DNA of 64,000 bases, taken from positions 160,001-224,000 of the IMG/VR virus record IMGVR_UViG_3300010163_000001. One strand, written 5' to 3'. Origin of the DNA: a virus. Lineage: Duplodnaviria > Caudoviricetes. Every line of letters begins with the position of its first letter. Within the stretch, counting starts at the first letter, position 1. A model generated the notes under the pieces. It was not told where the DNA came from. It was given only the letters and a program-made list of their open reading frames with translations, and ran no database searches. Shown here one piece after another: positions 2,534 to 63,582 of the stretch. The translations under genes and the position numbers were made by a program.

Positions 2534-2565
2534 AAAAAAGAGGATCCCATGGGATCCTCTTTTTT
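2534..2565. terminator. perfect 32-bp palindrome with A/T tails, bidirectional intrinsic terminator
   Basis: aaaaaagaggatccca|tgggatcctctttttt immediately after the stop of 2573..3178(-). Confidence 0.75.
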
Positions 2566-2572
2566 ATTTATC

Positions 2573-3178: not shown

Positions 3179-3190
3179 CCTTTCTTTTTA

Positions 3191-7024: not shown

Positions 7025-7117
7025 ATTTTTCCTCCTCTTGATTTTCACTACTCAAAAAATATATAATTGCTTAAAAGATTACAATGACATAATTATATAT
7101 GAAGGAGTTGACAATAG

Positions 7118-7609: not shown

Positions 7610-7627
7610 AATATAGTGGGGAGCTTC

Positions 7628-8176: not shown

Positions 8177-8275
8177 ATTAGATAGTCCTCCTTTTTCTTA
8201 TTATAACAAAAATATACGAGTTTTTGTAAATCTTTTTAACTTTATAGTAAGTAATTAAAAGGAGGTTATAAATAA

Positions 8276-8743
8276 ATGGAGAAAATAAAAAAGATAAAAT
8301 TCATAAGTCCTAAACCTGTAGAATTTAATGATAAACTGTTTGAAGATTGCGATTTTAAGGAGTATAATTTTTATAAAGGGACTATTACGAATTGTACTTT
8401 TGTGAATTGTAATTTCGAAGATGCCAATTTTTCTAAAGCTACGATAACAAATTGTAAATTTATAGGATGTTTTATGCAATATTGCGGGATGGTTAGGATT
8501 AATATTTCGAATTGTGAAATTATTGGTTGTGATTTGTGGCATAGCAACATGTGTCATTCCATAATTCATGGAACAATATTTGAGAGTACAATATTAAAAG
8601 CTTTATTTAAGGAATTAAACTGGAAAGATAATTCTTTTGATAAAGATACTATTATTGATAGTTGTGGTGGATCGCATTGTGGAATTCCAAATGAAATTAT
8701 AAAGAATTTGGAAAATTCTTTTAAATTAAATAAAGCTTCCTAG
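8276..8743 (+). CDS. pentapeptide repeat protein
   Basis: Repeats FEDCD-FKEYN-FYKGT-ITNCT-FVNCN-FEDAN-FSKAT-ITNCK; AAGGAGG SD. Confidence 0.85.
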   Translation: MEKIKKIKFISPKPVEFNDKLFEDCDFKEYNFYKGTITNCTFVNCNFEDANFSKATITNCKFIGCFMQYCGMVRINISNCEIIGCDLWHSNMCHSIIHGTIFESTILKALFKELNWKDNSFDKDTIIDSCGGSHCGIPNEIIKNLENSFKLNKAS

Positions 8744-36900: not shown

Positions 36901-39900
36901 ATCACTATATGTCTCAGTTCCTCCTCCATTTACAATTGGATTCACAGTTGGAGCATACATCTCTGACTTAACAGAATATATTGTTGGTAATGAATTTATT
37001 GAACGTATTTCTTGTGCAAAACTTGTTTTCTTTGTGAAAAATAGTAAATTTGTTGGATGTTGAAAACTTGTATTTGGGTTGTATACCTTAATAATATAAT
37101 TTCCAGGTGGAAGAATATTCTCTTCCTTAATATCAAGATTAAATTGATTATATAATCCTTCTGTTGGAGTAAGTTTTGAAAAGTCTGTACTTTCTAAGAC
37201 CGACTTAAAGTAATCTGCATAATTAAATGTGTTAACCTCATCTTCACTCTTAGGTAACTGATATATCGTAATAGTTGTTTTTGGATCTTCAAAGAATGAT
37301 ATCGGCAATCCTTCTTTTAATGTAAACGTTATTTTTCCTGGATTTGTGCTATATGTGCTAATATATGAAATCATAGATTCCATACCAGTAATGTGTAAAG
37401 GAAGTTTTATGGAATCAGAAGCTAAAGCCATCCATTTCCAAGAGAATAAACATTCCCCTTCATTTCTTGTTGATAGTGGTAGGTATCCTTCTTTTATTGG
37501 TATTCTAATTCCACTAATATTATACTGACTATCATACATAATCGTTGCTTCTTTTGAAGATCTGAATACGAAATATGGTGGAACATAAGAGTTATAACTC
37601 TCAAGTGCATAAGAAGAGAAATATAATACATTCTCATTTACATCTTTCATAGATACTTCTATAAATGGAACACTGACCATAGGATCATCAATTCCATCTG
37701 GTGGTAGTATTTGTACACCTGTTATACTTCCCGGATTATCTATCATATATGGAAGGTCTACAGGATCTTTAGTTGTATATAACAGCATATAGTCGTTATC
37801 TGTTTCAAGATGAATTTGACCATAATAACTTCCTGTTTTCGGGACATCTGCAGATAAGCATTCTTTCCATACGAATGTTGAATATGTGGAAACATCCTCT
37901 CCTTCACCTTCGGTGATAATTTCTTTCACGAATTGATAAGTGCCAACTAACTGTATTGCTCCGTTTACACATTCATATTTGTAATAGATATCATACAAAT
38001 GATCTTCTTTTTCACTATCGGTATCCCATCTAACAAATAAGGGATTTTCCATATTAGCTTCTTCTGATCCCCTATAAAAATCAACAGGTCCTAATTCACA
38101 TCCATCTCGTAATTCTACGTAGAAGTAATCTCCTTTTGTACCTCCATATTGACTTGGTACATAGGTGATTGACCGGAATGTGAGATCTTCAACATATGAA
38201 TTTAGTGTCCATTGTGTTCCCGATACAGAAGTTAACCAACTTCCATTAGAACCACATGCAATAAATCTATTATCTGTAAATATTACATCTCTTAATGGGT
38301 ATGTGACTCCACTATTTATTAAGTTAAACTCATATTCACCATCCTCTGGAGTAACACGACCAATTGTTCCACCATCACCCACTGCAATAATGGAATCATC
38401 ATGATAACATACTCCGTAGAATGATTTTGTAATTTCAGTATTTATTTTTGTAAATGAAGGATTTTCAATATCCTTAGAGACTAAAATAAGTCCTCTTGTT
38501 CCCACTAAAATAATTGCTGAATTGTCAATTACTTCTTCAATTACCGGTTCTGGTTCTGGAGCACCAATAGTTTCTCCATCTTCATCATCTTCGGTGTTAT
38601 CCGGTTCTGCCGTAATTATAGTTTCATTTTTAAAGTAGGTTACACTGTTAATATTTACATCACATCCAGTTTCCAATGCTGTCCACGTATTACCACTATC
38701 TTTCGTCATGATAGCTGTACCGTCATATCCTACTGCAATATATTGGGTTGGAGTGATTTCTGTAATAGCTGTTAATGTTTTTGTGGTTGCATTTGTTTCA
38801 ACTATATTTGCAGTGATTCTACCATTCTCAATGACACCTTTTAAAATAATACCATCTGCTCCTACGATAATGATGTTATTATCTATGATTAAGCAATCAT
38901 TTAATGCTTTTGAAGTCCCAAGACTAAATACTTGTGCTTTTTCATAACTAGAGAAGTCTTTTATTCTTAATATTTTACCACTTCCACATAATGCGAAGTA
39001 GTTATTGGAATTATCTATAAATACTTTCTTAATTGAAATATCTTGCTGTGTATCATATTTTTTCCATGTATTTCCGTCATAACTATATAAAATGTATCTT
39101 TGATCTGTTGGAAGTAAGAATATTCCAAAGAAATTTGATTCGTTTATATCTTTAAATATATCCTCATATAATGTCTCATTTAGATCTGCTTCTAATAAGG
39201 AAAAATGATATTTTTTTATTAGACTTACATCTACAGGGTGTTCTAAAGATACCTTTAATTTGTTTATTGCCTGTACAGTAATAGATGAAATTGAATTCTG
39301 TATCTCGTGTACCATATATGGCAAAGTAATAGAACGAGACCATAATGTATACTCGTCTGAATTATCCTCATCTACTTCTTCATTATCTTCTGTCTCGTCT
39401 TCATTTTCATCTTCCTCACTATCATCATCTTCTCCTACGCCAATTTCAATGAAGAATTCAAATGTATAATTACCAGGATTCAATGATGCTCCTGATTCAA
39501 GTGCTAATCGAATAGTGTAACTATTTTCAAATTCACTAATGAAATTGAAATCTTCTAGATTATTTATAATAGAAATATCCTCAAATTCAGATGAGAAATC
39601 TTCTCCATCCTCATTTAAAACACGTAATCCTACAATTTCAAATAATTCAGTTGGTAGATCTTCTGTGAATGTTACATCTATATAGTATAATCCGCTTGCT
39701 TCAATTCTTTCTATATAGCCAATATTATTTGACAAGAACGGAAGCTCTCCCGTATATGCAAATGGAGTTATTTCTACAGCATCTTCCATATCTTTTTCAT
39801 TCTGATAGCATAATCTTAAGTCATACGTACCTGGAATAACTGTAGTACCTGTTTCTAATTCAAGGATTATTTCATCCGTCGTATTAACTGTTTTCAGAAT

Positions 39901-42900
39901 CATTTCAGGCGTTCCTAATAAGAGCACCGTATTATCGTCTACATCTGTGATATTATATGTTACATCAATCATATCATGTAATTCTACAAAATCATCTGTG
40001 TAAAGTCTAAATGTTCTATAAGATTCTTCATCATCAAAATTATTAGAATCTTTAATTGTATCAAACATGTCAGTTATAACTTCACCATTTGGTCTAGTAA
40101 TTTCGATATTGTATTGTGATAAATCTTCGCCAGTAACAAATTGTGTTAACGTAAATACTAAATAATATATAACATCTCTCTCATAGAAAGTACTTACATT
40201 ACAAGGATTTATAAAGTAATCAGAAACATCCATTCCATCCGAGTTCACTAAATATACAGATAAAGCATTCAATAAGGAATCTTCGATCTCATCATCTAGT
40301 TTTATCGTTAATTGATCAATACGTGGCTTCTGATATAATTTTACCATTTGACCTAAATATTCTGGTAATGTATCTTTATCTAAAATATCTTTGTCTTCAA
40401 TAGTTTCAGAATTTAATAATCTAACCTGATATCCATAGAGATCTTTTGCATTATCATTTGTGATTTTAGTTGCAATAAATCTTTCTGTGCTTAAATTATC
40501 AACTCTTTCAATATCCGGAAATTGATAAGCTAAGTACGTAATATTCATCGAGAAGATAAATGCTGTTGTTTCAACATCTTCATCATCTCCATCTTCAGTT
40601 TCTTCTGTATATTCTTCATTCAATGTAAACGTATATAAAGATGGTCCAACAATTTCTTCTTCATCCACCTGTATATAATAAGTATCGGTTTTTGATGTTT
40701 CTTCAATCTTCATATCAATATTTCCATCTCTCCATGTTTTAAATAACATAGAAACATCTTCACCGTCTTCATTCACAACATTAAGTTCCATTGCAAGCAT
40801 ATAGCTTGCTGCTAATTCTTGCTCAAATTGAATTTCTATTGTATCATGTGAGTAAGTTCTTATACGTTTAATCCCACCAGCAACTGCATTTAATCCATAT
40901 ATAAATGTAGAAACTGGATATAAAGAATCTTTAGACCATGTCCATTTTAATAAGTAATTTCCACTTGGTAATGTGACATTTGGTAGAATTGGAATGTTAA
41001 TTTCTTCAACAAGCGTAATCCCTTCTTCTACTTCATTCTTAAATATCTCAGAATTTGCAATCGCACCAAAACTATCTTTAAATGATTTTCCAATAATTGT
41101 TCCATCTTTTCGTACTCCACGATATGTCATAATATCAAAAGTAGACCCCAATAATGCATCAATATCAGGTAATTCTGAAAATTGAATATTAAGGGTATCC
41201 TTATCTTTAATAGTCATACTCTGAATGACTGGACACGAACCAGACATAAATGGAAGATATTTTGTATTCTTAAAATATTCTTTTCCGTTATATAAAAATC
41301 CCATTTCATATGTGTTCCTAGGAAACATCATGTGTTCTTCTAATTTAGATAAAACAGAATCAATAGTTTCTACACTAAAATGGAATTTACTAATTACAAT
41401 ATCTTTCTTAGTTTTTCCAAAATACGTATCTACAACAATCTCGTCATCATTTCCCTGTCTTTCATACGTATTTGCTGCAAGCATACTCATAAATACTGAA
41501 CTATAATCTCTTTTTGTCGTTGTATTTCTTAGGAAGAAATCACTGTTATTTAATAACGTGAGTAATTGATCTTTTGTAAATTTAAATTCGAGCGTATTAT
41601 AAAGAGTTCTTTCAACTGTTGTGTCACAGTTAATCACTTCCGTATTTATCATGAAATCAATGTCAATATTTCCTGAGAAAGCATATTGCAATTCTAATCC
41701 TTCGCCACCCCATGTTGACTTTTGATCTGTAGAGATGATAAAACGATAATTTCTCCCCGGAAGAATATCTTGTGCCTTCTCTTCATAATCTTCATTGGAA
41801 CCCATTTTAACAATGACACTATCATACATCTTGTCATCTAAAAATTCATTTGTTTTTTGTAATTTCTGGAATTGAGTAATGAAAGATACATCAGATATAA
41901 CCTCTCCATCTTCATTTTCAGATTCATAAATTGTAGTCACGTCAACTTTTCCAGATTTTAATAAAGAACCAGAAAGTCTCTCTAAGAACGTTATCTTTAC
42001 AGAATCCAAATCATTCTGTATAATCTCTTTAATTGGGAAGAGAATATAATCTAACCGAACAATTCTTGTTATTTCCTTCATATAATTGGCAACTCTTTCA
42101 GACCAATTAAATGCTACAATATATGTGTCCTTCTGTATTGTTACAGGATGATCTATCCCATCTTTATCTGTATACTTTTCTAACATTGGTAACGTTACAT
42201 ATTCAACATATTCAATACCATTCTCGTCAGTTTCTTTTTCATATACTACTTTATGGATATCCTGGAATTTGTCTGGTGCGATATTTGCCTCAGCATTACC
42301 CTCTGTCCGGAAGATAAAGTTAGAATTTTCAAATAGCTTTACTTCTAAACCAGGAGATCTAAACATAATAATGATTGCATCTTTTCCATCTAAACGATTT
42401 CCTACTTTAGCAGCAGAAACTTCTTGAATCATAGGATATTGATTTGACAAAAATGGGAGTGTGATACCTTTTGTCAAAGGATATTCTGTATCAACACCAG
42501 TAAATTCTTTATAAAAGTAGATTTTATATTCTCCTGCTGGAATAGGTTTTAAAATATTTAAAGTGAAATCTTTGAATTCATCTGCCGGTATACGTTTCAT
42601 AGCAGATGATAGTGATTCAAATCTATCAGATACATCTTCTCCATCTGAATTTAAAACTTTGATAGAGAGAGTCGCAAATAATAACCTAGATTCTAAAGAG
42701 CTTAGTTCAATACTGATTTGAGATAAAGTCACAGGTTTAATAAGATCTATTTCTCCATTTATACCTTCCATATGTTCGTTTTCGAAATAAAAGAAATCTA
42801 ATCGCATTGGATTGTCTTCCGGCTTTCTTGGATCTCCATTATACATTTCGAATAAACAGATTCCTTGTAAAATCTTATAACCAGGCTTTAATATGAGAGT

Positions 42901-45795
42901 AAATGAATCAACTTCCTCTAAGTTTTCATCCCAATCTCTCTGATTAGAATCGTTAATCGTTTCAAATTCATCTTCTATTCGATTATCTTTACTATCTTCG
43001 ACGATAAAATGATAAGATTCCAAAATGTGCTTAGGAATTGGATTCTGTAATTGTACTTTAAGTTTATTAATAGCAGACGGCTCTACCAATGTTATAATGG
43101 GATATACAGCCGCATTGATATTTAATACTCCAATATAATCTGATTCTCTAATATTATCTTCGTTGATATGATATATAATAATCTGATATGCTCCGAAGGA
43201 AAGATTTCTCAGATCTAAAATATTTAAGTTTGCATCATTTGTTGGTTTAGAAATTATATTGGATCCAGGAATTGTTCCGAAGAATGATGTGTGGTCGTCA
43301 CCATCTTCATTAAGTACTTCTACCATTGCTTCTTCAAAGAATGATACTTGTAATTCTTCTGGAAATTTCATATAAATTCTTCCAGTATTTGATTTTGCAT
43401 TTACTGCTGTAACTCTTGCATCTACCATTCTGGGTAACACATAACCACTAAATGCTTTCTTAGATAAATCTTTCATATATGGAACGATTCCATCCCATGA
43501 AAATGTTATTGTATATAAGTCTTTTTCAATTTTAACATCTTTATCAAAAACCTGAATATTTATAGTCCTATAGAAAATTAATCCATCTTTAGATACAGTA
43601 GTCGTAATCCATTTTTCTTTCTCCTTAAGTTGTTCTGACAGATCACAGCCGTTGTCTCCGACAATAGTAATGACCGCATCTTCAAATAACCGCTTCTCCA
43701 AATATGGATTAAAAATTACTTGAAATTCTGTTAATCCATTTTCTGCCTTCTGTACGGTAATGCTATTTATCTCCGGTATATTTTTTGTCATGTGACCAAG
43801 ATCTACATCACATTTATAAATCTCTGTAAATTCTTTTTCATTTTTATTTATATAAGATACAAAAGAAAACCTATATTTCCCACTTGGTATAGAATCTCCT
43901 TCATCCATTGGAATAATTAAAGTTTCTATTGTAGGATGATCGTTTGTCAATACATTTTTCCAGTTTTCAAATCGTTCTGTATAACTTTGACCTGTTCTTA
44001 CATTTTTTACAACCAAGTCAAGATTTAAAAGAAATCCCCTGCTTTGAGCTTCTGAAAAATACACTTTCACTGAATCAATACTTATTTGATCAATATTTGT
44101 GATATAACCCTTTGCTCGCTCAATATAACTCATTTCCAAATCATGCTTTTCTAAGTTCATACCACGGAACTCTAAGAAAGCATCAAATTGTCCGCTGGTG
44201 ATTGTTGATGTTTCGTTGATATATACATCGAACATATTGGTATTTGTTTGTCCGGGTTCCCATATATTGGAATCCTCAATTGATGAGAAAGAATCGTAAT
44301 AATCTTTATGAATACCGTATTTATCTTGAATATGCAATATACATGAATTGATAATATTAATTGGAATCTTCTTAGTAAGTTCCACTTTAATTGTCTGAAT
44401 ATCATAATGGTAGATTTTTTCGATACGAGGAGTTACTTCTGCTATGATATCTATATTGGCAATGTAATCATAGACACGTTCTCCTGATTCATCGTCTATA
44501 TGATATAAAATGAAAGTATAAGTTCCATTAGAGATATTATCTCTATTTGTAATTTGAACACTTACTAAATCATGTGCAGATAAATCCTCTACTTCTCCAG
44601 TAAGTTCCCTTGTAAATACTAATTTTGAATCGAAAATATTCTTATTTGTGTCTCCCGTTATATCTTTCCCATCTAACTCTACAAGATAAGATTCTTTATT
44701 TAACCAGTCTTTCAATTCTGAGTCTGGTAAATCTAAAACAATGTGTTTCAAGTCATTATTGTAAAGACTTACTCTCTCAATACCCGGAACAACCCAATTT
44801 ACTATCATTGAGTATAAGATGTTGTTATAATAATCTTGCTTCCACTCAAATGTTACTTTATAGGAACCTTTTTCTAATTGGTAGTATTCTGTATACATTC
44901 TAATGTCAACTCTAGTAATATAGTCAACATTTGAAGATGTAAAATACGTTGCAGATATTGTAGTTGGATCGAAGTAATAAGTGATATCTTTTCCTTTATT
45001 TGTATAGACTTTCAAATCGCCACGTTCCAACATGGTCCTCTCAATATAATCACTAAATATAATAGTTAAATAAGTTCCACTTGTTCTTGTAGTAATCATA
45101 GAACTCCCGATTTTTGGTGGAGTGGTAGTCATATAGTCTATATGTGTTAATTCACTTTCTACAATGGAAAACGTCCTACTTTTATACGGACAAGTAAGAC
45201 GAATAGTAAATCTGCCTTCATGGACAGATTCTTTTTCTTTTAATTTGATATAAAATTCTGTAATATAATCTTCATCAATCTTGTCAATTACTTTTGATAA
45301 AGTTTCAAAATTGCTACTAAAATGCTTATTATTCACATCAATAATAGAAAATGACATTTTGGACATCATTTTCTTAGTTTGATATAACGTATCTTCCGTA
45401 AGGGGTTTCATTACAACATGAAGTGTATCTATAGAAGATAATTCAATTTTATCAAAAGTTACACGAATATCTTCCATATAATTTGTCTTAAATGAATCTT
45501 CATAACAAATTTCATCTTTCACTAATAAAGTAAATTTATACGTCCCTTCATCTATTGAAGTATTTTTCTTCAAAACCAAATCGAAAGATTCAATATTACT
45601 ACCTTTTTTGTAATCGTTTGAATCTTCTATGGATTTAAATTTATCTGTTAAATCTGCCGTCTCATCTAATGTAGAAATTCTGAATGATAATTTACCGAAT
45701 GTAGTGAAATCAATCTTATTTGAAAGACTTATTCGTAATTTATCAAGTGTATACTGTTGTACAGAACTAACAACAACATTATCCATTAAAATCAT
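33952..45795 (-). CDS. giant repetitive virion-type protein (3947 aa): Ig-like repeats, beta-propeller, Lys-rich CxxC tail
   Basis: Recurring ~115-aa unit (G.D.S..F ... G.Y.F.F); propeller blades IAVGYDGT/ILVGTRGL/IAVGDGGT/IACGSNGS; AACT-N6-TA upstream. Confidence 0.75.
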   Translation of the reverse strand: MILMDNVVVSSVQQYTLDKLRISLSNKIDFTTFGKLSFRISTLDETADLTDKFKSIEDSNDYKKGSNIESFDLVLKKNTSIDEGTYKFTLLVKDEICYEDSFKTNYMEDIRVTFDKIELSSIDTLHVVMKPLTEDTLYQTKKMMSKMSFSIIDVNNKHFSSNFETLSKVIDKIDEDYITEFYIKLKEKESVHEGRFTIRLTCPYKSRTFSIVESELTHIDYMTTTPPKIGSSMITTRTSGTYLTIIFSDYIERTMLERGDLKVYTNKGKDITYYFDPTTISATYFTSSNVDYITRVDIRMYTEYYQLEKGSYKVTFEWKQDYYNNILYSMIVNWVVPGIERVSLYNNDLKHIVLDLPDSELKDWLNKESYLVELDGKDITGDTNKNIFDSKLVFTRELTGEVEDLSAHDLVSVQITNRDNISNGTYTFILYHIDDESGERVYDYIANIDIIAEVTPRIEKIYHYDIQTIKVELTKKIPINIINSCILHIQDKYGIHKDYYDSFSSIEDSNIWEPGQTNTNMFDVYINETSTITSGQFDAFLEFRGMNLEKHDLEMSYIERAKGYITNIDQISIDSVKVYFSEAQSRGFLLNLDLVVKNVRTGQSYTERFENWKNVLTNDHPTIETLIIPMDEGDSIPSGKYRFSFVSYINKNEKEFTEIYKCDVDLGHMTKNIPEINSITVQKAENGLTEFQVIFNPYLEKRLFEDAVITIVGDNGCDLSEQLKEKEKWITTTVSKDGLIFYRTINIQVFDKDVKIEKDLYTITFSWDGIVPYMKDLSKKAFSGYVLPRMVDARVTAVNAKSNTGRIYMKFPEELQVSFFEEAMVEVLNEDGDDHTSFFGTIPGSNIISKPTNDANLNILDLRNLSFGAYQIIIYHINEDNIRESDYIGVLNINAAVYPIITLVEPSAINKLKVQLQNPIPKHILESYHFIVEDSKDNRIEDEFETINDSNQRDWDENLEEVDSFTLILKPGYKILQGICLFEMYNGDPRKPEDNPMRLDFFYFENEHMEGINGEIDLIKPVTLSQISIELSSLESRLLFATLSIKVLNSDGEDVSDRFESLSSAMKRIPADEFKDFTLNILKPIPAGEYKIYFYKEFTGVDTEYPLTKGITLPFLSNQYPMIQEVSAAKVGNRLDGKDAIIIMFRSPGLEVKLFENSNFIFRTEGNAEANIAPDKFQDIHKVVYEKETDENGIEYVEYVTLPMLEKYTDKDGIDHPVTIQKDTYIVAFNWSERVANYMKEITRIVRLDYILFPIKEIIQNDLDSVKITFLERLSGSLLKSGKVDVTTIYESENEDGEVISDVSFITQFQKLQKTNEFLDDKMYDSVIVKMGSNEDYEEKAQDILPGRNYRFIISTDQKSTWGGEGLELQYAFSGNIDIDFMINTEVINCDTTVERTLYNTLEFKFTKDQLLTLLNNSDFFLRNTTTKRDYSSVFMSMLAANTYERQGNDDEIVVDTYFGKTKKDIVISKFHFSVETIDSVLSKLEEHMMFPRNTYEMGFLYNGKEYFKNTKYLPFMSGSCPVIQSMTIKDKDTLNIQFSELPDIDALLGSTFDIMTYRGVRKDGTIIGKSFKDSFGAIANSEIFKNEVEEGITLVEEINIPILPNVTLPSGNYLLKWTWSKDSLYPVSTFIYGLNAVAGGIKRIRTYSHDTIEIQFEQELAASYMLAMELNVVNEDGEDVSMLFKTWRDGNIDMKIEETSKTDTYYIQVDEEEIVGPSLYTFTLNEEYTEETEDGDDEDVETTAFIFSMNITYLAYQFPDIERVDNLSTERFIATKITNDNAKDLYGYQVRLLNSETIEDKDILDKDTLPEYLGQMVKLYQKPRIDQLTIKLDDEIEDSLLNALSVYLVNSDGMDVSDYFINPCNVSTFYERDVIYYLVFTLTQFVTGEDLSQYNIEITRPNGEVITDMFDTIKDSNNFDDEESYRTFRLYTDDFVELHDMIDVTYNITDVDDNTVLLLGTPEMILKTVNTTDEIILELETGTTVIPGTYDLRLCYQNEKDMEDAVEITPFAYTGELPFLSNNIGYIERIEASGLYYIDVTFTEDLPTELFEIVGLRVLNEDGEDFSSEFEDISIINNLEDFNFISEFENSYTIRLALESGASLNPGNYTFEFFIEIGVGEDDDSEEDENEDETEDNEEVDEDNSDEYTLWSRSITLPYMVHEIQNSISSITVQAINKLKVSLEHPVDVSLIKKYHFSLLEADLNETLYEDIFKDINESNFFGIFLLPTDQRYILYSYDGNTWKKYDTQQDISIKKVFIDNSNNYFALCGSGKILRIKDFSSYEKAQVFSLGTSKALNDCLIIDNNIIIVGADGIILKGVIENGRITANIVETNATTKTLTAITEITPTQYIAVGYDGTAIMTKDSGNTWTALETGCDVNINSVTYFKNETIITAEPDNTEDDEDGETIGAPEPEPVIEEVIDNSAIILVGTRGLILVSKDIENPSFTKINTEITKSFYGVCYHDDSIIAVGDGGTIGRVTPEDGEYEFNLINSGVTYPLRDVIFTDNRFIACGSNGSWLTSVSGTQWTLNSYVEDLTFRSITYVPSQYGGTKGDYFYVELRDGCELGPVDFYRGSEEANMENPLFVRWDTDSEKEDHLYDIYYKYECVNGAIQLVGTYQFVKEIITEGEGEDVSTYSTFVWKECLSADVPKTGSYYGQIHLETDNDYMLLYTTKDPVDLPYMIDNPGSITGVQILPPDGIDDPMVSVPFIEVSMKDVNENVLYFSSYALESYNSYVPPYFVFRSSKEATIMYDSQYNISGIRIPIKEGYLPLSTRNEGECLFSWKWMALASDSIKLPLHITGMESMISYISTYSTNPGKITFTLKEGLPISFFEDPKTTITIYQLPKSEDEVNTFNYADYFKSVLESTDFSKLTPTEGLYNQFNLDIKEENILPPGNYIIKVYNPNTSFQHPTNLLFFTKKTSFAQEIRSINSLPTIYSVKSEMYAPTVNPIVNGGGTETYSDYGDPTVLSSMTSLTSNWEISGEETLKKHVGDKYTDQDTLDTYYFSFDKINKEYKWKKAIKRPYVAVVFDEMPCYTTFFNTHINKENGFELDEVTIVNESTTTRTSLKDFVIMDHDTWGVNTIISNEIKFITKIYIPLDETKDFLGAKNASIAIKFISSSIYKTLTFDGFSLNPYVHSYGNIDEIIKINTSIKDTKQAAGLIIRFERPQLSTFLRSCIYDIIRQHKDEKGVAIDEDWSGSFDTIEEANKEDLNNNLSLTEIWLPLSKSSMFLEELRSGTYMFTLTGDKPDSDMGSNPDNEEIEEVIMKKKFKTPWLTTKHPNNLTVKLNTKDTTKAPFLQVRFKGTYPALSSCKGFSLTVKKIVKGKDIDYSDCFRTATSKVTWFLDPDVLDPEEPKVKGINIPMKTMRCLPKGKYRFTFHFKDKALLDSIPLKDSKNWTTFTVSKTILTRIGEIKKVTVKKKKMTVEIKPSSAIKTDALLKKSQIGKALKVKKWSGLLKKLGLVMSKGSVKNAKSNFKAKPKVSKKKITYTLKANKKVNPGSWKFSFNYGGRRVIKAKKVDFKGIIYNKIGKASKDKNCWIIIEKHDGVKKSKVYKTYDGAYKRIKKMRKLNKAQSEQYEKCKKCRKKKFFSTTKIRAQLEKYEFPDKKLIKVFIKKLAKTYYKKIVKKTTKCKECEIVKYTPESGTSDNHVQFHCDNYVTTGKPYSWSFRIATMGSKFPSIEAKGDAKKIYFKSITIKGVRLDRGFKASKKGKTTKKYKQYEKQLEKWIKKYKKSVSRCKKCKKYEIARKGGTIIGWGQALFPGTLRTDKKVKKTAKSILRKNLQKFFKKKRTKKVTITKTLPTGEVKKEKKNKNYRIGCKNADFSFVKKNKTYCRIKCAKAKSADKTLKLGSMKGIYVPPSLKLLDTPMRRLVNIETSIEQKKSSKYKKATLEDLYSTETTHILKELDGPRRTNIEVLGQIDDKLKQDTNIIIGKTENRR

Positions 45796-51928: not shown

Positions 51929-52453
51929 TTTACGCTACATGATTAAGCAACGCATCACACATCCACTACAAATCCAAGCAAGCCATTTCCTTTACTCAAC
52001 CACACGCCACCATGCGTCGCCTTTCCGTAACACCACTTCACACAACCTCACCTTTCCTATACCTTACTAGACACATCAATTCATAACGATACATCTCCAT
52101 AGCATTACAATACTTTACCAGTCCAGTCTATTCCATTACTTAACCTATCTTGACACAGCTTTTCCGATGCATCATATTACAATACTTGGCTCTTCCATTA
52201 CTCCACGACTCAACACTTCACTTTTCCTTAACTAGACTAAGTTGTGTGCCGCCTAACGCTTTATAGTACATTACTAAAATTAACTACTCATAACCGTGAC
52301 TCTACCACTCCATTCTATGCATAGCAGATCCATTACATCACTAAACCCAACCTCACCATTCCATTACTTAACTCTACCATTCCACTCCTTTGCACCACTC
52401 AACTTTACATATCGTCGCTATACTGAACACTACCTTTACTTTACATTACTAAA
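51929..52453 (-). repeat. non-coding 5-nt-phased array 1 (GYNNN pentamers with GGAANN linkers on the minus strand)
   Basis: Plus strand e.g. tttac tcaac cacac gccac catgc gtcgc ctttcc gtaac accac ttcac acaac ctcac ctttcc; linker spacings 36,31,41,36,31,31,31. Confidence 0.85.
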
Positions 52454-54898: not shown

Positions 54899-54929
54899 TA
54901 AAAAAAGAAGGTTGTTAAACCTTCTTTTC
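54899..54929 (-). terminator. intrinsic terminator ending array 2
   Basis: Minus strand AAAAGAAGGTT-TAAC-AACCTTCTTTTTTT. Confidence 0.7.
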
Positions 54930-55397
54930 ATAACCGTAGATTTTACTACTACTAAACATTACTCTACCAGACTTTACCATTCCTTTTCAATACTTTTCGG
55001 AACTATTCCAGCACAACACTTAACTTTTCGACACCATTCCCATACGTCACATTACTTATCAACGCTTTTCATTTCAATACAGTGAGAATATTTTACTAAA
55101 CTAGTCCAAAGCCAAAAACCTTTTCTCCACATTACTGAACCATTCCATCACCTGACAACGCTTTACTTCTCCAATACGAGCCAATTCCACTCTGCACCAT
55201 TCCAATACACATCCGCACTTTACCCTACCATGCACAACCTTTACAAAACTAAACAAAACATCACGACGCTTTTCGTATCCATTACATTTCAACACGTTTC
55301 CTTGCTATTGCATCACATAACAATTCAGATCAGCACCTCACCATTCCATTACTTAACTCTACCATTCCACTCCTTTACATCACTAAACTTAACACTT
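54930..55397 (-). repeat. non-coding 5-nt-phased array 2
   Basis: attac tctac cagac tttac cattcc ttttc aatac ttttc ggaac tattcc agcac aacac ttaac ttttc gacac cattcc; shares 42 bp with array 1. Confidence 0.85.
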
Positions 55398-55823: not shown

Positions 55824-55875
55824 GTATCTTAGATACTATGATACTAGCTGGAAGAGTTGGATTTCTATGAGTATG
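55824..55875 (+). repeat. shufflon-type junction repeat, cassette A
   Basis: GTATCTTAGATACTATGATACTAGCTGGAAGAGTTGGATTTCTATGAGTATG; 51/52 identical to the inverted copy at 63531-63582. Confidence 0.85.
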
Positions 55876-58362
55876 GATGGACATACTCATGCCCGACTTG
55901 CTAGTGGGTTTTCGACGTCCAGCGGGAATTTAGATTCATATAAATCTCCTAGCTTGGTTCAAATTACATCTAAAAGTATAACAAATGGTCCTCTTACTAC
56001 TTACCCATTAGAATATGTTTGGCTTTTGGTAATCGGATGGGTAGAAGATGCACAACAAATTCTATTCACAGGATCTGCTGATGAGACATATTGCAGATAT
56101 TGTATAGATAAAACATGGTCGGAATGGGAAAAATTTGGTGGAACTCCCATCACAGTGGATGATATTGATTTAAGTAATTATGCTTTAAAGAATCATAATC
56201 ATAATGAGTATGCCAAAAATGGAATCATATATCCAGGTACTCAAGGATTTGATAATACTAGTTCCTTAGGTTCTACCGGTATATATAGTCTGATTTCAAA
56301 TACAAGTGACGCAATCCCAAATTCTCCATATAATAATTTGAATCATCGTTATTTGCTCATAAACTCTAAAACCGAAAACTCTCCTGATGCAGATAGAATA
56401 CAAATAGCAGTGTCGTACGACGATTTGTCTGTACATGTTAGGTCATTAGAAGGAACTTCAGGTAAGTGGTCTGGATGGGTTAAAGTATCTTCTGATGATT
56501 TTTTCTCTAAAACATTTATTGACGGATCAAATAAAACTATAGACTTTAATAACTATCTTACTGAAGGAATGTATAAAATAATACTAAATAATACTACTAC
56601 AGTATTAAATGCTCATCCAATACTTGAACGTGAGAGTGAAGCGGCCATTGAAATAATTATTATAGTACAAAAAATACGTCATTATGTTTATCAAGACGTT
56701 TTTATAAAAAACATGGATAATGATCATTTAAAACGCTTCATTTATTTAATCAATGGCACAGATCCAAAATTCGGAATATGGAATACTACTGAAATAGGAA
56801 AATATCAAAATTTGAATACCAGTATTAAAGATATGAACGATTTTAAATTTTTTGATTATCATGAATTGTTTTTTGACACGATCCCTGTTAAAGATGTAAA
56901 AAACATCCCAGACCAATTTACTGAAAATGATTATGCCTTATTGATACATGCAAGCGATTTGCTTGCAAATTATAATTATTCATATGCTCATCAAATAATG
57001 ATTCAATCAGAAACTACTAATATATTTATTAGAGCACTATTATCAAATGATAAATGGACTGATTGGAAAAGAATTTGTACGGATGATGAAAATGTAGCTA
57101 AATTCCCAGCTACTGGTAATATTGCACCTACAACTGAAGAAACATTAGACTTAAATACAATTATTAAAACTGGTTTGTATACAATTGACCCTAACAATGA
57201 AAAAATATTGAATGTACCAAAACTTTGGTATCATGAATCAAATGCCCCATATAATCCATTACATATGGCTTATTTAACAGTGATTAGTAATGGTTCTAAT
57301 ATCATGCAGACGATTGAGGCTGGAATGACTAATTGTATATTTAGTTTTTATTCTAGAAGAAGTAGTAATGATGGTGGAAACACCTGGAATACATGGTCAA
57401 ATAATTATTTAAACGGGAAAATATCTGGTGTAACAATAAATTCTTGGAAAAGATATATTTCAAAAGGAACAGAATCGGTATCTACGTATGATATTAATAA
57501 AGATTTAATTACCAAAAATATGTTAAGTTCACTCAATGTTTCTAAAAACTTTGCAGGGACTATCAAAAATTCGCCATTCGATAAAGGCAATACTAAATTT
57601 TGTATCCAAAATATACACAACAACTGGTGGTTTGATGTTGAAGATGATGGTACAGTAAAGAAAGGCTCCGATGATAATGGGTATATTCATCAAACAGTAT
57701 GGGATCTTCCCATGGATAATATTTATACTCGTTATGTTTTAGGAATGAGCAGGGATAATTATACTGATAACTTTACTCCATGGAAGAGAAAAAGATTTTT
57801 AGAAGACGACCAATTCACATGGCAATTAATATGGAATGGGGAACATGTGGCTCCATCATCTATGGCAGATTATCATCCTATAAAAATAAGTAACGTCACA
57901 TTAAATGTTTTAATGAAAAAAGATGATGTGTGCGTAATGTGTTATGCACCATTAAAAATAATTACAAAACGCTATTGTGGTGCAGGTGTATATAGAACCA
58001 ATGTTATTGATACTATGTTAATGTGGCAAATAACTTATAGTGAAGGTATGAGTAAGGATACTGCCATGATATGTGGTGCTTATTATCATTTTACACGTAT
58101 AGGTAATGAATTTAATAATGGCTACGTAAATTCAGATGGAAAATTTACGGATAATTATGGGTCAGTATACACCTTAGAGTCAGGCGAGTGGTATCCAGGT
58201 TATATTATAGATAGAGATAATGGTGTTAAATCTTATAATGATACATTTAATATAGAAAATGGTCCAAAAGTTCAAAAATTTGGTCCTCTCACTATATGTA
58301 TTGAATTAGGATCAGACTTTTCAGTTGGGTCAAATTTAGTAGCAGTTTATACACTACAATAA
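55825..58362 (+). CDS. silent tail-fibre C-terminal cassette A
   Basis: Frame opens at YLRYYDTSWKSW just after in-frame TGA; repeated D.N.....G.Y ... Q ... R ... W..W knob-like units; no convincing SD. Confidence 0.75.
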   Translation, partial: YLRYYDTSWKSWISMSMDGHTHARLASGFSTSSGNLDSYKSPSLVQITSKSITNGPLTTYPLEYVWLLVIGWVEDAQQILFTGSADETYCRYCIDKTWSEWEKFGGTPITVDDIDLSNYALKNHNHNEYAKNGIIYPGTQGFDNTSSLGSTGIYSLISNTSDAIPNSPYNNLNHRYLLINSKTENSPDADRIQIAVSYDDLSVHVRSLEGTSGKWSGWVKVSSDDFFSKTFIDGSNKTIDFNNYLTEGMYKIILNNTTTVLNAHPILERESEAAIEIIIIVQKIRHYVYQDVFIKNMDNDHLKRFIYLINGTDPKFGIWNTTEIGKYQNLNTSIKDMNDFKFFDYHELFFDTIPVKDVKNIPDQFTENDYALLIHASDLLANYNYSYAHQIMIQSETTNIFIRALLSNDKWTDWKRICTDDENVAKFPATGNIAPTTEETLDLNTIIKTGLYTIDPNNEKILNVPKLWYHESNAPYNPLHMAYLTVISNGSNIMQTIEAGMTNCIFSFYSRRSSNDGGNTWNTWSNNYLNGKISGVTINSWKRYISKGTESVSTYDINKDLITKNMLSSLNVSKNFAGTIKNSPFDKGNTKFCIQNIHNNWWFDVEDDGTVKKGSDDNGYIHQTVWDLPMDNIYTRYVLGMSRDNYTDNFTPWKRKRFLEDDQFTWQLIWNGEHVAPSSMADYHPIKISNVTLNVLMKKDDVCVMCYAPLKIITKRYCGAGVYRTNVIDTMLMWQITYSEGMSKDTAMICGAYYHFTRIGNEFNNGYVNSDGKFTDNYGSVYTLESGEWYPGYIIDRDNGVKSYNDTFNIENGPKVQKFGPLTICIELGSDFSVGSNLVAVYTLQ

Positions 58363-58409
58363 ATTTTTATTAGGTACTGGGATTAATTTCCCAGTACCTA
58401 ATATCATTT

Positions 58410-59705
58410 TTACATATCATCTACGAAATCCTCTGAAGGAACGCCGCCATTATTCTTGTTTTCTTCAGATTCTTCCCATTCTCTCTTTGGACAGTATTCT
58501 TGTACAAGTTCCTTCCCAGTATCTAAATATTTCATATCTGGATTTATTTCAAAGAATTCCGAATACTTCCTTAAGAAAGTGGGATGACAACTTCCTCTTT
58601 TAATCTTACGAAGCCATTCTTCATAAGATCTTGTATAGTAATGATTTAACTGCATGAATTCTGTTGTAATTTCCGGATGATCATCGTAATCTGCGGTTTC
58701 AGCATCTAATCGAACTAATGGTGTATAACTTGTAAACCCGCGAATACGATTTGTCTGAGCAAATGTTTTTCCACCGTGTTTTTCATCATACCAAGTAGTT
58801 TCCTTTGGAAAACGAATCATATCAGGTTCTGCTGTTTGTGTTTCTTGTCCATTTGCAGTATAATGTTTCCATTGACATTTGATTTTTGCATATTGTGTGT
58901 TTTCCTTAAGGAAATCAATTAAAGATTTTGAATCATCTTTTAATTTGATATATTCATCCGGATCCATACCAATGAACCATTTTGTTTCATTTTTATAGTT
59001 ATTTAAGAAATCTGTATGTGCATCTTGCTGTGAAAATCTTGTTGTTGGAAATCTCTTGATGGTACAATGATCAAGATACTTAAAATTAACGCTTTCCAAG
59101 TATTCTTGCGCTGGAATTTCTGATTCGTTATCATAGAGATAGAAATGATCAACTCCCATCTCTTCAATATGATATCGAATCCACTCTTCCAAATAATCAT
59201 TTTCATCTCGAATAATTGCAATTACAGATAAAAAGTATTTGTAATCTATTTTTGCCTCTTCACTTTCAAAAAGTCGAAGTTTACCAGCAACTTCCTCTTT
59301 CTTTAATTCTGCAGTCAATTCGTCTCTTTGTTTTTCCAAAGTGGCTAATTTTTCACGATTATTCTTCGCAATGTTTTTTGCTTCTTCCATACTCATTCCA
59401 TTAATGATGTTATCCATAAATGTTTTGTATTCATTTTCACCGGATGCCTGTTTACTAATTTCGTTTATTTCGCTCATAACATTATGCAAACTAATAGATG
59501 CTTCACTCTCTTGTGGAATTTCGTCATCCTTTAATTCAGTTACTTTTCCATCAATATAGAATAAATTATTATTTATTCCGGATGATAACACCTTTTTCTC
59601 TTCATCACCTTCTACAAAAATAGAATCTGAATTGGAAGTATTATGAATAATCGTATTATATCCCACAATTTTCATATTTTTGTAATCAACATATATTTCG
59701 ATCAT
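58410..59705 (-). CDS. glycosyltransferase (GT-A, GT92/GT2-like) with N-terminal coiled-coil extension
   Basis: LSVIAIIRDENDYLEEWIRYH..MGVDHFYLYDNES, WFIGMDPDEY, QLNHYYTRSYEEW..K..RG. Confidence 0.85.
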   Translation of the reverse strand: MIEIYVDYKNMKIVGYNTIIHNTSNSDSIFVEGDEEKKVLSSGINNNLFYIDGKVTELKDDEIPQESEASISLHNVMSEINEISKQASGENEYKTFMDNIINGMSMEEAKNIAKNNREKLATLEKQRDELTAELKKEEVAGKLRLFESEEAKIDYKYFLSVIAIIRDENDYLEEWIRYHIEEMGVDHFYLYDNESEIPAQEYLESVNFKYLDHCTIKRFPTTRFSQQDAHTDFLNNYKNETKWFIGMDPDEYIKLKDDSKSLIDFLKENTQYAKIKCQWKHYTANGQETQTAEPDMIRFPKETTWYDEKHGGKTFAQTNRIRGFTSYTPLVRLDAETADYDDHPEITTEFMQLNHYYTRSYEEWLRKIKRGSCHPTFLRKYSEFFEINPDMKYLDTGKELVQEYCPKREWEESEENKNNGGVPSEDFVDDM

Positions 59706-59801
59706 TTTTTATATGCACCTCCATTATTTTAAATAAATATATTTATTTAAAATGTACGGTAGGGAAATTAATAATATATTTCATTCATGCAGTATCTCAT
59801 A

Positions 59802-61319
59802 TTAAATTTTTAGTATAGATATCTTTGTAATAACGTCACCACCATTAATATATAATTCAATTGAAGTATCATCTGCTATATTTACACCAATACCAGATTT
59901 TAAAGTAATCATCTGTTTACCTAATGAGCACAGATTACCGCAAAGGCTTTGAAAATCGCTAATTGCAGACCAATAACAATCAGTATGGCAGTTAAAGTTT
60001 GAATTATATACTGATAAATAAACAGACGAACATGAATTATCAATAGGAATAGGACTATTATGATATAAATTATAATTACACGTATATGCGCAATTTGTAG
60101 ATTCAATTTCTTTAGTTAAAATGAAAGTTTGTTCAAAAAACTCGTTATAATTACTACATTTATATCCTCTTATTTTTATGATTACTCCTACTATTAAAGT
60201 GGGATGACCGGAAATCCCAATTGGGTCATATGAAAATATACCGTATTTATATGGATCTGATATAGGAAATTTCTTATTATAGGATATCTCTCCATCAAAT
60301 ATAGTATTCCAACATTCCGTATTATCTTCCAATGCAACATTATACCAAGTAGTATTAGAATATCCGTTACCATTGCGAATAAGTAACGCAGGTGCAGTAC
60401 CAATTCTTCCAACAACTGATAATTGTGGTAGAGAACATTCCACACTTCTAGTAGCTATATAATCTTTATCATCAGCTAGACCATTGTCTAGCAGATCACT
60501 TTTATTAGAACAGTCTGTTATATTTGCTACAAATTCTAGAATATTACATCCATTATAGTTATAATATTCAGAGTATGTTTTTATTACATTCATAAAACGT
60601 AAAATGCTCCAATCTGACCATGTACTACCCGTAGAATATGTTCTTTGTCTAGTATATATTTCAGACATATTGGTAAGATACGCAGTATTTGAATTTTCTT
60701 TTATAGCTAATTGCTGTATCTTACTATTGGTAGATTTCATTACAATTAGTGAAAAGTTTCCTGCTGCTGGAGCATTTAATGCGGTGGTTGCATTTGTCAT
60801 TGTATAAATACCTGGAGTTGTCATGTTATTAAAATTCGTAGCATTCTTTGTTGACACTGCAGCAAAATCAGATGCATGTTTGTTGTCTACTGTATCTGCA
60901 TTACCTCCATTTGCGGGTAATGATGATGGTACGGTAGGTATATTTACTGTTTTTGCTGTGCTACCATCATATGAGCCAGTAACGCTTCCTGTAAACGTCA
61001 GAGCATTTGGATTTTTCATAGTCGTAGGCATATCTGTAATTTCTGATTTCGTATGTTTATGTTCCTTTGGAGCAAATCTATTATCAGATGTTGATTTATC
61101 ATATGCGTTAACATCAGTTGCTGTTGTACCATGAGGGTTTGTATCTTTTGTAATCGCATGGTCATATGCTGTTTTCCCTCTATCTCCACGATAGGCTGTA
61201 TCGCTGGTCTCGCCTAATGTAAGAGCACTTTTTATTTGCTGATATCTACCTTCCGTAAATGTAAGAATTGTCTTTATCAGACTTTTTAAAACATTTTTAT
61301 TTGTAGATTTTCTTGCCAT
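59802..61319 (-). CDS. expressed tail-fibre gene: constant N-terminus (~aa 1-215) plus variable cassette D
   Basis: AAGGAG SD; LGETSDTAYRGDRGK, NPHGTT, HKHTKSEITD, GGNADTVDNKHASDF fibre motifs; in-frame GTATCTTA junction at 60674-60681. Confidence 0.85.
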   Translation of the reverse strand: MARKSTNKNVLKSLIKTILTFTEGRYQQIKSALTLGETSDTAYRGDRGKTAYDHAITKDTNPHGTTATDVNAYDKSTSDNRFAPKEHKHTKSEITDMPTTMKNPNALTFTGSVTGSYDGSTAKTVNIPTVPSSLPANGGNADTVDNKHASDFAAVSTKNATNFNNMTTPGIYTMTNATTALNAPAAGNFSLIVMKSTNSKIQQLAIKENSNTAYLTNMSEIYTRQRTYSTGSTWSDWSILRFMNVIKTYSEYYNYNGCNILEFVANITDCSNKSDLLDNGLADDKDYIATRSVECSLPQLSVVGRIGTAPALLIRNGNGYSNTTWYNVALEDNTECWNTIFDGEISYNKKFPISDPYKYGIFSYDPIGISGHPTLIVGVIIKIRGYKCSNYNEFFEQTFILTKEIESTNCAYTCNYNLYHNSPIPIDNSCSSVYLSVYNSNFNCHTDCYWSAISDFQSLCGNLCSLGKQMITLKSGIGVNIADDTSIELYINGGDVITKISILKI

Positions 61320-61412
61320 TTTTATATTCTCCTTTCTTATATTAATAATATTCGTTTTTATTTAAGTGTACTAAATTCAGTGTTTAGATTTCCATTTATC
61401 AAATTCCTTTAC

Positions 61413-61444
61413 GTATCTTAGATACTATGATACTGCTAGCTGGA
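61413..61444 (+). repeat. shufflon-type junction repeat, cassette B
   Basis: GTATCTTAGATACTATGATACT(GCT)AGCTGGA. Confidence 0.85.
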
Positions 61445-62289
61445 GCACATGGTATATAAATGAATTACAAAATGCTGCAACTTATAAGTACAATTCTGTA
61501 TATCAAGAACCTATAGCTTACAATTCACCAACCCCGGGAGTATATGAGAATCGTAACTTTTGCAAAGATTATAGATATAACGATGTTGATTTAAACACCG
61601 GAAGTTGTATTGGTATTAATATGCATTATAGTCATTTATATATGGGTTGTGATATGTCGATGGTCTTAGTAGATACCCTTGATATACCAAGTATTTTATT
61701 TAAGGGAAATAATCATGATAAGTTTTACAAAGTTGCTATGGAAGATAGAATAATTAAACCATTAGTAATATACAATGGAAGCTATACAGGTACCCAGTTA
61801 ACTTTAAATGTACCATTAGAATATTTAGAACACAATATAATTTTTAGGAATAATATTTTATATTTATTTTCTTGCTTAAAAGTGACTATAATATATAAAG
61901 AAAATATTAACAATAAATGTAGTTGGCTTGAACAATCTGAAAATATTGTACAATATACATTTGAAGATGCCTATTATTTAAAATCAACTAGCTGTAACAT
62001 TTATTATGAAAGTCCTATGACATCATCATTCGGTATAAATTGTAATTATAATGGAAGTATGAAAATGTGCATATATGGGAAACAATTTGGGTATGATCCT
62101 GATTGTTCTAATTGCATGTGGATCAATAATAATTGTCCACATGCGGTTCCAAATTATATTGATGACATACATTGTAGTTTATTATATTGGAATTATGGAA
62201 GCCCTCAATTAGGTCCTATATTTAAATTGAATATAAATAATCATAATCTTGATATAAAAAAAGTTATAATTGAGCGATTACCATCTTAA
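61414..62289 (+). CDS. silent tail-fibre C-terminal cassette B
   Basis: Frame open from YLRYYDTASWSTW (61414) through track ORF 61621..62289. Confidence 0.7.
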   Translation, partial: YLRYYDTASWSTWYINELQNAATYKYNSVYQEPIAYNSPTPGVYENRNFCKDYRYNDVDLNTGSCIGINMHYSHLYMGCDMSMVLVDTLDIPSILFKGNNHDKFYKVAMEDRIIKPLVIYNGSYTGTQLTLNVPLEYLEHNIIFRNNILYLFSCLKVTIIYKENINNKCSWLEQSENIVQYTFEDAYYLKSTSCNIYYESPMTSSFGINCNYNGSMKMCIYGKQFGYDPDCSNCMWINNNCPHAVPNYIDDIHCSLLYWNYGSPQLGPIFKLNINNHNLDIKKVIIERLPS

Positions 62290-62303
62290 TTTTTATTTGA
62301 TTA

Positions 62304-63581
62304 TTAATTTAAAAAATAAATAGCGAGTAATCGTAACTTAGATTCAGCATCAAATCCGAAGTTAATATTAAAGTTCATATATATTACTCTAGAGTAACCA
62401 TCGTTAAGAGTTTCTTCTCCAGGAAGATTATCTATATAAGCTGAATTTACTGAAGAAAGGGGGTGATTATAATCCACATTACCACCAGTTAAAGAGATAA
62501 ACGGTTTTGTTGCCGCTCCTTCAATATCAAATTCTGCGTCATATAATAAATAAGATTGATATGTGCAATTACAACTGTCACTACGAATAATCCAACCTAA
62601 AGTAGCTTCTGCAGATCCTAGTTTATAATTAGTTGAACTTGTATAAAACATATAATCTATACGTACTGGTAATATACACAGATTTAATGGGCCACCATAA
62701 ATACCACACAAGTAATTACATCCGTTACCTGAGAATTTACCCATTCTAGTAATTCTAACATTTCCCATAAGATTATATATAGTTTTTATTAAGTCACCAG
62801 AACCAGATGATTTTAATGAACCACTCCATACCCTTTCCCAAACAAAATGATCGTCTTCAGAAAGTAATTTATATCTCTTCCATTCAGACCACTCATTAAC
62901 ACCTTCCCTATATTTTAAATAACGAGAATAAAAATCAGTCATTTGGGTATTAATAGACAATTGGAATTTTCCCTTTTTGTAATTTCCATTATTATCAGTA
63001 CTTTCTGATGCATTATATTCTATCTGAAGTACAAATGTGTTATTATAACCATAATGTCGTGCAGGATATTCGTCTGAAGAATATTTAAAGTATTCTGGAG
63101 GAGTATTGTCAATTGTATAAGAATAATAATCACCTGGGAGTGCAATAACTCCTGAGAAGCCATCAAAATTATATGACATGTCAGTTTCAGATGGCAATTT
63201 TTTTACATTAGAAATAGATTCCCATTCAGACCATCTAAAACTATATGAAGTATCAGAAACTTCGGTTAAATAATAATTACGTATAAATATATTATTATCG
63301 CCGACACCAGAGACAATCTGGTGAATACATGGCGGGGAATAATAGCCACTTACAAATACAATTAATCCAACTTCTGGGACTTTAAAATTAGTATCTAGAA
63401 GCTGATATGGGATGCCTACTGAGTTTCTAGGTATGGTATAAAAACCAGGTGTAAATAGTTCATTAACATTTACTGATATACTTGAACCTAAATTTTTCCA
63501 ATTAATAGCATTATTATGTGCATGATCGCTCATACTCATAGAAATCCAACTTTTCCAGCTAGTATCATAGTATCTAAGATA
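62304..63581 (-). CDS. silent tail-fibre C-terminal cassette C
   Basis: Begins YLRYYDTSWKSWISMSM; no SD before TTG 63584; knob-like units. Confidence 0.75.
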   Translation of the reverse strand, partial: YLRYYDTSWKSWISMSMSDHAHNNAINWKNLGSSISVNVNELFTPGFYTIPRNSVGIPYQLLDTNFKVPEVGLIVFVSGYYSPPCIHQIVSGVGDNNIFIRNYYLTEVSDTSYSFRWSEWESISNVKKLPSETDMSYNFDGFSGVIALPGDYYSYTIDNTPPEYFKYSSDEYPARHYGYNNTFVLQIEYNASESTDNNGNYKKGKFQLSINTQMTDFYSRYLKYREGVNEWSEWKRYKLLSEDDHFVWERVWSGSLKSSGSGDLIKTIYNLMGNVRITRMGKFSGNGCNYLCGIYGGPLNLCILPVRIDYMFYTSSTNYKLGSAEATLGWIIRSDSCNCTYQSYLLYDAEFDIEGAATKPFISLTGGNVDYNHPLSSVNSAYIDNLPGEETLNDGYSRVIYMNFNINFGFDAESKLRLLAIYFLN

Positions 63582-63582
63582 C
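63531..63582 (-). repeat. shufflon-type junction repeat, cassette C
   Basis: Inverted copy of 55824-55875 with one mismatch. Confidence 0.85.

Follow-up and report, generated by a model that had tools for sequence, protein, structure and literature searches.

Silent tail-fibre tips that share a 22-bp site form a candidate inversion switch in an AR9/phiKZ-type jumbo phage

The 64,000-nt stretch of DNA analysed here (the window) corresponds to bases 160001-224000 of the IMG/VR virus record IMGVR_UViG_3300010163_000001, which is 254,592 bp long with a GC content of 31%, and it carries near its right end a locus in which one expressed tail-fibre gene is accompanied by three silent tip cassettes (A, B and C). 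The expressed gene consists of a constant 5′ part (the head) and a variable 3′ part (the D tail). We see about even chances that this locus is a programmed inversion switch, in which a putative enzyme would bring silent tips to the receptor-binding end of the one fibre. A preliminary description, made from the sequence alone, had interpreted the locus as a shufflon-like switch of four cassettes, and the present analysis supports this interpretation in part.

The locus was recognized by a palindromic core with a conserved right arm. The 13-bp palindrome GTATCTTAGATAC is present in exact form at 55824(+), 61413(+) and 63582(-), a count that was reached in 0 of 100 shuffles, and the identity at these three sites extends to 22 bp (GTATCTTAGATACTATGATACT), of which there are exactly three copies in the whole genome. 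The left flanks of sites A, B and C are unrelated to one another, so that the identity begins sharply at the G of GTATCT; to the right, A and C are alike over 67 nt at 88%, and B diverges after base 22. Even synonymous positions agree within the 22 bp, in tips whose identity has otherwise fallen to 27% or below. The symmetric part of the site is only 13 bp with an odd centre, and one arm is conserved: the 14-bp right arm is found at the three cassette starts, and the core GTATCTT(A) is in frame at all four places, so that every variable segment begins, and the constant part ends, with a short asymmetric repeat. As had been claimed, the expressed gene carries the core in frame: it reads ...ACTGC GTATCTTA CCAAT at 60681-60674, with only 8 bp in common with sites A-C, and the codons TAT CTT (YL) are in frame in A, B, C and the expressed gene alike. 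Counting both strands, there are 22 copies of the octamer GTATCTTA in the genome, about 4e-5 per position, and its presence at the one head codon position that matches the cassette start is therefore not due to chance. The folding of the site as a hairpin or fold-back was not significant (z -0.8 to -2.7), an Rfam search returned nothing relevant, and neither further cassettes nor further sites were found elsewhere in the genome. As separate observations, a second, inverted GTATCTTA lies inside the head gene at window 60716-60723 (+), 27 nt upstream of the junction core (chance roughly 0.4%), and the left arm of the head, AAATAC-TGC-GTATCT, is an imperfect palindrome.

All three cassette open reading frames (ORFs) begin with YLRYYDT..W..W, which is the last strand of a pyocin-knob domain, and none of them has a credible start. 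In cassette A the TAT codon is preceded by TGA GGG, which places the reported TGA two codons upstream, and there is a TAA four codons upstream as well; upstream of cassette B an in-frame TAA lies at a distance of 13 codons, and its first 69 codons contain neither ATG nor GTG nor TTG, the earliest such codon being at 61621; in cassette C a TTG stands directly before TAT, 2 nt after a hairpin with a 17-bp stem. A Shine-Dalgarno (SD) sequence of at least 5 nt precedes a start within the first 60 codons in 203 of the 219 other ORFs (93%), with none in 10, and no SD was found before any candidate start within the first 140 codons of A, B or C, which upholds what had been said of their starts. Together the three cassettes keep 1,561 codons open, when about 8% of random codons would be stops at this GC content, and that they do so despite their divergence indicates that the tips are maintained by selection and need a start from elsewhere. 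Compared with the YLRYYDTSWKSW of A and C, the stretch YLRYYDTASWSTW of B has a 3-nt insertion as well as substitutions, which together leave the reading frame and both tryptophans intact; hence, it is constrained as protein though no start reaches it. Cassettes A and C are 27% identical; B resembles them in its first 13 residues only and has a weak similarity to the D tail (24% over 152 aa, E 0.001). No homologues of B were found, C had none besides itself among 1.84 billion representatives, the ESM Atlas result on B (score 0.86) was uninformative, and no shared 3′ homology that could serve gene conversion was found among the cassettes.

Alternatively, A, B and C could be independent genes, translated from internal or non-canonical starts (ATG 55867 for A, ATG 61621 for B, and TTG 63584 or ATG 63539 for C), with the 22-bp element as a shared regulatory or promoter element. 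The element does contain TATG/TATGAT, automatic gene calls start C at ATG codon 15 (411 aa) and B at 61621 (215 aa), and an ATG is conserved 40 nt after the site in A and C. However, the proposed starts lack the SD that nearly all ORFs of this genome possess, the YLRYYDTASWSTW of B and 56 further codons would be untranslated, yet they are open and preserve the frame, and the resulting proteins would begin with an orphan strand or in mid-domain. Furthermore, the 22-bp element is found nowhere else in the genome and is therefore not a general promoter, so that we consider independent genes highly improbable. Two further ways of reaching the cassettes were rejected: recoding of the stop codons upstream of A, since TAA as well as TGA is found there and the standard code gives a coding density of 90.6% with very long ORFs, and a short upstream ORF from the ATG inside TATGATACT, ending in an ATGA overlap with the ATGs of A and C, which is in the wrong frame for B. 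Annotation pipelines mis-call such start-less tips as ordinary genes that start at internal ATGs.

The expressed fibre gene (61319->59802(-)) encodes 505 aa behind a strong SD (AAAGGAG), and its constant codons end ...NSNTA before the YL codons of the core. Homologues of the head carry PF12789 and PF27308 and are named pyocin knob domain proteins, and the head is the only N-terminal part of a knob in the genome. An AlphaFold2 model of the fibre, built on a 30-sequence alignment, was poor overall (mean predicted local distance difference test score, pLDDT, 45), with residues 161-245 predicted confidently (pLDDT 84-87). Model residues 150-244 match the R2 pyocin fibre (6cu2_A: Z 10.5, root-mean-square deviation (rmsd) 2.6 Å, 84 aligned; 6cl6_A: Z 10.0), and further matches of the knob are to receptor-binding proteins of staphylococcal phages and to the Mu fibre (8ju3_A, Z 6.5, rmsd 2.7 Å, 74 aligned). 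With its PANGGNADTVDGKHA-type N-terminal repeat, its pyocin-knob homologues and this structural match, the fibre has the knob fold. The only low-confidence loop of the modelled knob is AYLTNMSE (pLDDT 58), and D's own IYTRQRT forms the knob strand. In the four internal knobs of this phage the spacing from the conserved Q to Y-x-R is 10, 10, 13 and 10 residues; it is 10 when the head is joined to any of the cassettes, and 18 in the present head-D fusion. The spacings and the loop indicate that RYYDT..W..W is the continuation for which the head is built, and the earlier claim that a fusion rebuilds a knob unit is borne out, because the spacing of 10 is restored as in the internal knobs.

The locus is ordered as cassette A (rightward), a hairpin, the glycosyltransferase gene and the D tail (both leftward), the head module, cassette B (rightward) and cassette C (leftward), so that A(+) and B(+) read in the opposite direction to D(-) and C(-), and the constant module lies between the D core and site B, which are inverted with respect to each other. 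Inversions were simulated in silico with the crossover within the core. The 55.8/60.7 kb inversion produced an intact ORF of 1058 aa from the head ATG, the 60.7/61.4 kb inversion, which flips the 731-bp module, an ORF of 504 aa, and the 61.4/63.6 kb inversion followed by the module flip an ORF of 638 aa; all three fusions read ...NSNTAYLRYYDT... Both the ORF map and these simulated inversions show inward-reading alternative 3′ parts that fuse in frame to a constant 5′ part, and the layout allows the expression of A, B and C that the preliminary description had envisaged, the logic of which holds in each detail open to testing. Direct observations on this DNA are the sites, the missing starts, the in-frame geometry of the fusions and the knob that they restore.

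We propose that the switch would work as follows. The sole unit able to start expression is the 731-bp module, with a candidate promoter, a strong ribosome-binding site, the ATG and the first 211 codons, which stops inside the knob domain at the core GTATCTT(A), and each silent tip has at its start the same core plus the 14-bp right arm encoding the last knob strand that is absent from the module. A reciprocal crossover within the core would then take place between inverted sites: the 55.8/60.7 kb flip would join the head to A, the 60.7/61.4 kb flip would turn the head module itself onto B, and the 61.4/63.6 kb flip would exchange B and C. Each virion population would thereby carry one of four tips. 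We infer from this geometry that such flips occur at some frequency and by the action of an enzyme, and that their role would lie in host range; if the switch is active, jumbo phages of this kind would hedge their host range. The coordinates of the locus are collected in Table 1.

Table 1. Features of the tip cassette locus (positions in the window)
Feature	Start	End	Strand	Description
Site A	55824	55845	+	22-bp exact copy: 7-8 bp core GTATCTT(A) + right arm AGATACTATGATACT
Silent tip cassette A	55825	58362	+	845 codons; starts YLRYYDTSWKSW, then several knob repeats; tip distantly like C
Hairpin, 15-bp stem	58368	58403	.	Between convergent ends of cassette A and glycosyltransferase gene; two-way terminator-like
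Glycosyltransferase gene (GT2/GT92)	58410	59705	-	PF13704 4.6e-14, PF01697 2.8e-10; own strong SD GGAGGTG
D tail (tip expressed in the assembly)	59802	60673	-	Own TNMSEIYTRQRTYSTGSTWSDW knob strand; weakly like B
Core GTATCTTA in expressed gene	60674	60681	-	Codons A-Y-L; right arm not conserved
Constant module	60682	61412	-	731 bp: candidate promoter CTAAACA / CTTAAATAA, SD AAAGGAG, ATG 61319, 211 constant codons
Site B	61413	61434	+	Exact 22-bp copy, 94 bp upstream of head ATG on opposite strand
Silent tip cassette B	61414	62289	+	291 codons; YLRYYDTASWSTW keeps frame through 3-nt insertion
Silent tip cassette C	62304	63581	-	425 codons; convergent with B
Site C	63561	63582	-	Exact 22-bp copy, inverted relative to A and B
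Hairpin, 17-bp stem	63590	63627	.	Insulates cassette C from upstream gene (stop at 63639)

Temperate phages with an invertase gene are known to switch their tail-fibre tips by inverting DNA, and systems of the Mu, P1 and R64 type have a serine or tyrosine recombinase. In the Gin, Cin and Min systems a serine invertase is encoded beside the segment, and the sites are quasi-palindromic, about 26-34 bp long, with a 2-bp centre. The Mu G segment (Gin), the P1 C segment (Cin) and p15B Min are like the present locus in that a constant 5′ part of the fibre is joined in frame to inward-reading alternative 3′ parts, and the Mu fibre has a knob of the same fold (8ju3_A). In contrast, the present locus has no PF00239 protein, its site is a core of 7-8 bp with one conserved arm and not a two-fold site of 26-34 bp, and here the constant part plus promoter is itself the invertible unit. 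The R64 shufflon, with the tyrosine recombinase Rci, sfx sites and PilV, has a short conserved core and one arm in the variable ORF, the other arm being unconserved. The locus resembles it in its asymmetric sites and in having several C-terminal segments for one constant N-terminus, and differs in that it has no Rci/PF00589 protein, encodes a fibre and not a pilus adhesin, and has an expression site without the conserved arm. Invertases of the Piv/IS110 type differ as well, since no DEDD protein (PF01548) was matched in the record. Of the Mu G/P1 C/R64 logic that the preliminary description had invoked, the in-frame fusion geometry is retained, and neither a serine or tyrosine recombinase nor the 14-bp right arm at the expressed junction was found.

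The Rin shufflon of Bifidobacterium prophages, which are temperate siphophages, swaps the C-termini of receptor-binding proteins at an 11-bp asymmetric repeat, with an adjacent tyrosine invertase and with inversion seen between genomes (Mavrich et al. 2018, PMC6109161). A second inversion locus in that paper likewise swaps such C-termini, at an 8-bp repeat (CAGGGTTA); no recombinase flanks it, and the authors suggest that an invertase acts on it in trans (PMC6109161). Crossover repeats of published phage shufflons are only 8-11 bp long (PMC6109161), and invertible regions without a nearby recombinase have also been noted by Milman et al. (PMC9881135). Hence, neither the 8-bp core of the head nor the missing neighbour enzyme disqualifies our locus, which differs from these temperate siphophage loci in that it lies in an AR9/phiKZ-type jumbo phage and that no variants were observed. 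In the way it works the locus is like Mu G, P1 C, p15B Min, the R64 shufflon and Rin, and since it lacks the enzyme of each of these families we do not file it as a member of any of them. New are the phage clade in which it occurs and the promoter-plus-5′ module that, as a central invertible unit, stands between two pairs of inward-reading tips.

Several findings weigh against an active switch. No serine recombinase (PF00239), tyrosine recombinase (PF00589), large-serine recombinase (PF07508) or, even at E <= 1, IS110/Piv protein (PF01548) was matched in the six frames of the 254.6-kb record, when control genomes were positive for all four families (12 of 14 genomes for PF00239 and all 14 for PF00589). 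An hmmscan search of ORFs of at least 80 aa at 144-254 kb and of ORFs of 140-520 aa at 1-146 kb (matches listed to E of about 1e-3 in one case) revealed no recombinase or transposase family, and the neighbouring proteins of the locus belong to no recombinase-like or informative family in Pfam or PHROGs. The head-D junction is 8 codons out of register, and it lacks the 14-bp right arm, only 8 bp being shared. The search for a hybrid junction or for the site in other DNA gave only chance matches in IMG/VR and none in JGI metagenome contigs or GTDB genomes, and these three collections and INPHARED yielded no related locus. To our knowledge, no site-specific inversion system has been described in AR9/PBS1/phiKZ-type phages. 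In addition, the record may be incomplete, and a piece with a recombinase may be absent from it. A TnpB-type zinc ribbon (PF07282) was considered and discarded, since it gave sub-threshold matches only, in large proteins.

A 255-kb phage without a known recombinase family and with an off-register expression site leaves several readings open. If the programmed switch exists, it needs a protein of no recognized family or a factor supplied in trans, and the D tail may represent a default or poorly reversible state, because the head-D fusion is out of register and has no right arm. In a more specific form, which we put forward tentatively and regard as rather doubtful, this jumbo phage would possess a tip switch independent of the three known invertase families, with either a recombinase of a new kind or the replication-recombination machinery, recruited to the 22-bp site, as the catalyst. 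An active switch would point to an unrecognized recombinase or to an enzyme-independent route, and the 22-bp site would be a direct handle for finding it. The locus could also be a cassette archive without a dedicated enzyme, in which general replication-coupled recombination on short homology (8-67 bp) rarely joins the head to another tip and selection on a new host picks the rare recombinants; this would be evolutionary exchange and not programmed switching. The lack of a recombinase fits such an archive, and so do the general recombination and repair functions of the genome (RusA, SMC_N-type proteins, helicases and SSB), the 67 nt that A and C share at 88%, and the head-D junction, which looks like an illegitimate event. 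However, a core of 8 bp offers very little length for homology-driven exchange, a 22-bp identity this sharp, with agreement even at synonymous sites and no relation between the left flanks, looks like a site recognized by a protein, and the symmetric inward-reading pairs fit inversion by design, so that we consider an archive of this type unlikely.

The switch may also have existed and then frozen, the recombinase having been lost or the expression site damaged on acquiring the D tail, so that head-D became fixed and A, B and C fell out of use. This would account for the undetected recombinase, for the expressed site 8 codons out of register without its right arm, and for the failure to find a variant in the collections searched, INPHARED included, which contained no match to the locus. 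The tips have no homologues, so that no relative shows another arrangement. On the other hand, A, B and C have kept their 1,561 codons free of stops and the three sites are identical over all 22 bases, so that any freeze would be very recent, and we judge it distinctly unlikely. Even if inactive, the locus would still be a clear example of intact silent tips in storage. The neighbouring structural protein has relatives of up to 71% identity, and the IMG/VR relatives found through it (L043-L055, 32-46% identity) are without the fibre. A distant relative among them, L045 (IMGVR_UViG_3300031555_004710), has at 1770-8640 five or six small paralogous genes on both strands that have in common a conserved leader containing SD and start (MNKSYADVLESY...); these repeats were rejected as start-less cassettes, since they are ordinary complete paralogues with their own SD and ATG.

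The ends of the record form an exact 115-bp inverted terminal repeat (1-115 and 254478-254592), and at the right end this repeat cuts an ORF of at least 129 aa, which passes through it and off the record. The repeat looks like an assembly break at an inverted repeat and not like a true terminus, and the estimate of 100% completeness may consequently be wrong. A metagenome assembly with so odd a terminus raises the question of whether the locus was mis-joined from a mixed population, in which case the arrangement or the head-D junction would not be real. However, the genes of the locus are all intact, head and D tail form a single uninterrupted ORF whose knob is well predicted, and three start-less ORFs with an exact 22-bp site in common are not what mis-joining would produce; an artefact is thus extremely improbable.

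The glycosyltransferase gene is located downstream of the D tail, between it and cassette A, and hence inside the putative A/D invertible segment, and may serve as an accessory gene specific to a tip. Over 27 nt, its 5′ leader and that of the fibre gene share 78% identity. The two hairpins insulate A and C. A scan for sigma-70 promoters performed no better than on shuffles.

The locus is surrounded by genes for virion structural proteins. Identity of the DNA polymerase to its counterparts in the Bacillus phages AR9 (27%) and PBS1 and in other phiKZ-type jumbo phages is 27-28%, and the Pfam inventory of the record includes a tubulin/FtsZ match, an RNA polymerase Rpb1 fragment, gyrase, NrdD and a GroEL-like chaperonin. 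Two giant ORFs were observed, at genome 145244-158890 (about 4,549 codons) and at 193952-205795 (window 33952-45795, about 3,947 codons). A non-coding tract of about 470 nt at window 54930-55397, and likewise one at 51929-52453, is nearly free of C on the transcribed (-) strand; the former contains repeated GGAATGG-like units, lies between a gene of 118 aa and a U-tailed terminator (54902-54929), and lies about 430 bp from site A, with no link to the cassettes found. Upstream of ORFs, AAAGGAGG is enriched 25-fold, in keeping with the very strong ribosome-binding sites of this phage, and over the whole genome TATATTAT is enriched 10-fold (24 found against 2.4 expected) and (A/T)CTAAATA lies 8-90 nt upstream of about 15 annotated starts, motifs which we take to resemble candidate early and late promoters of the AR9/T4 kind.

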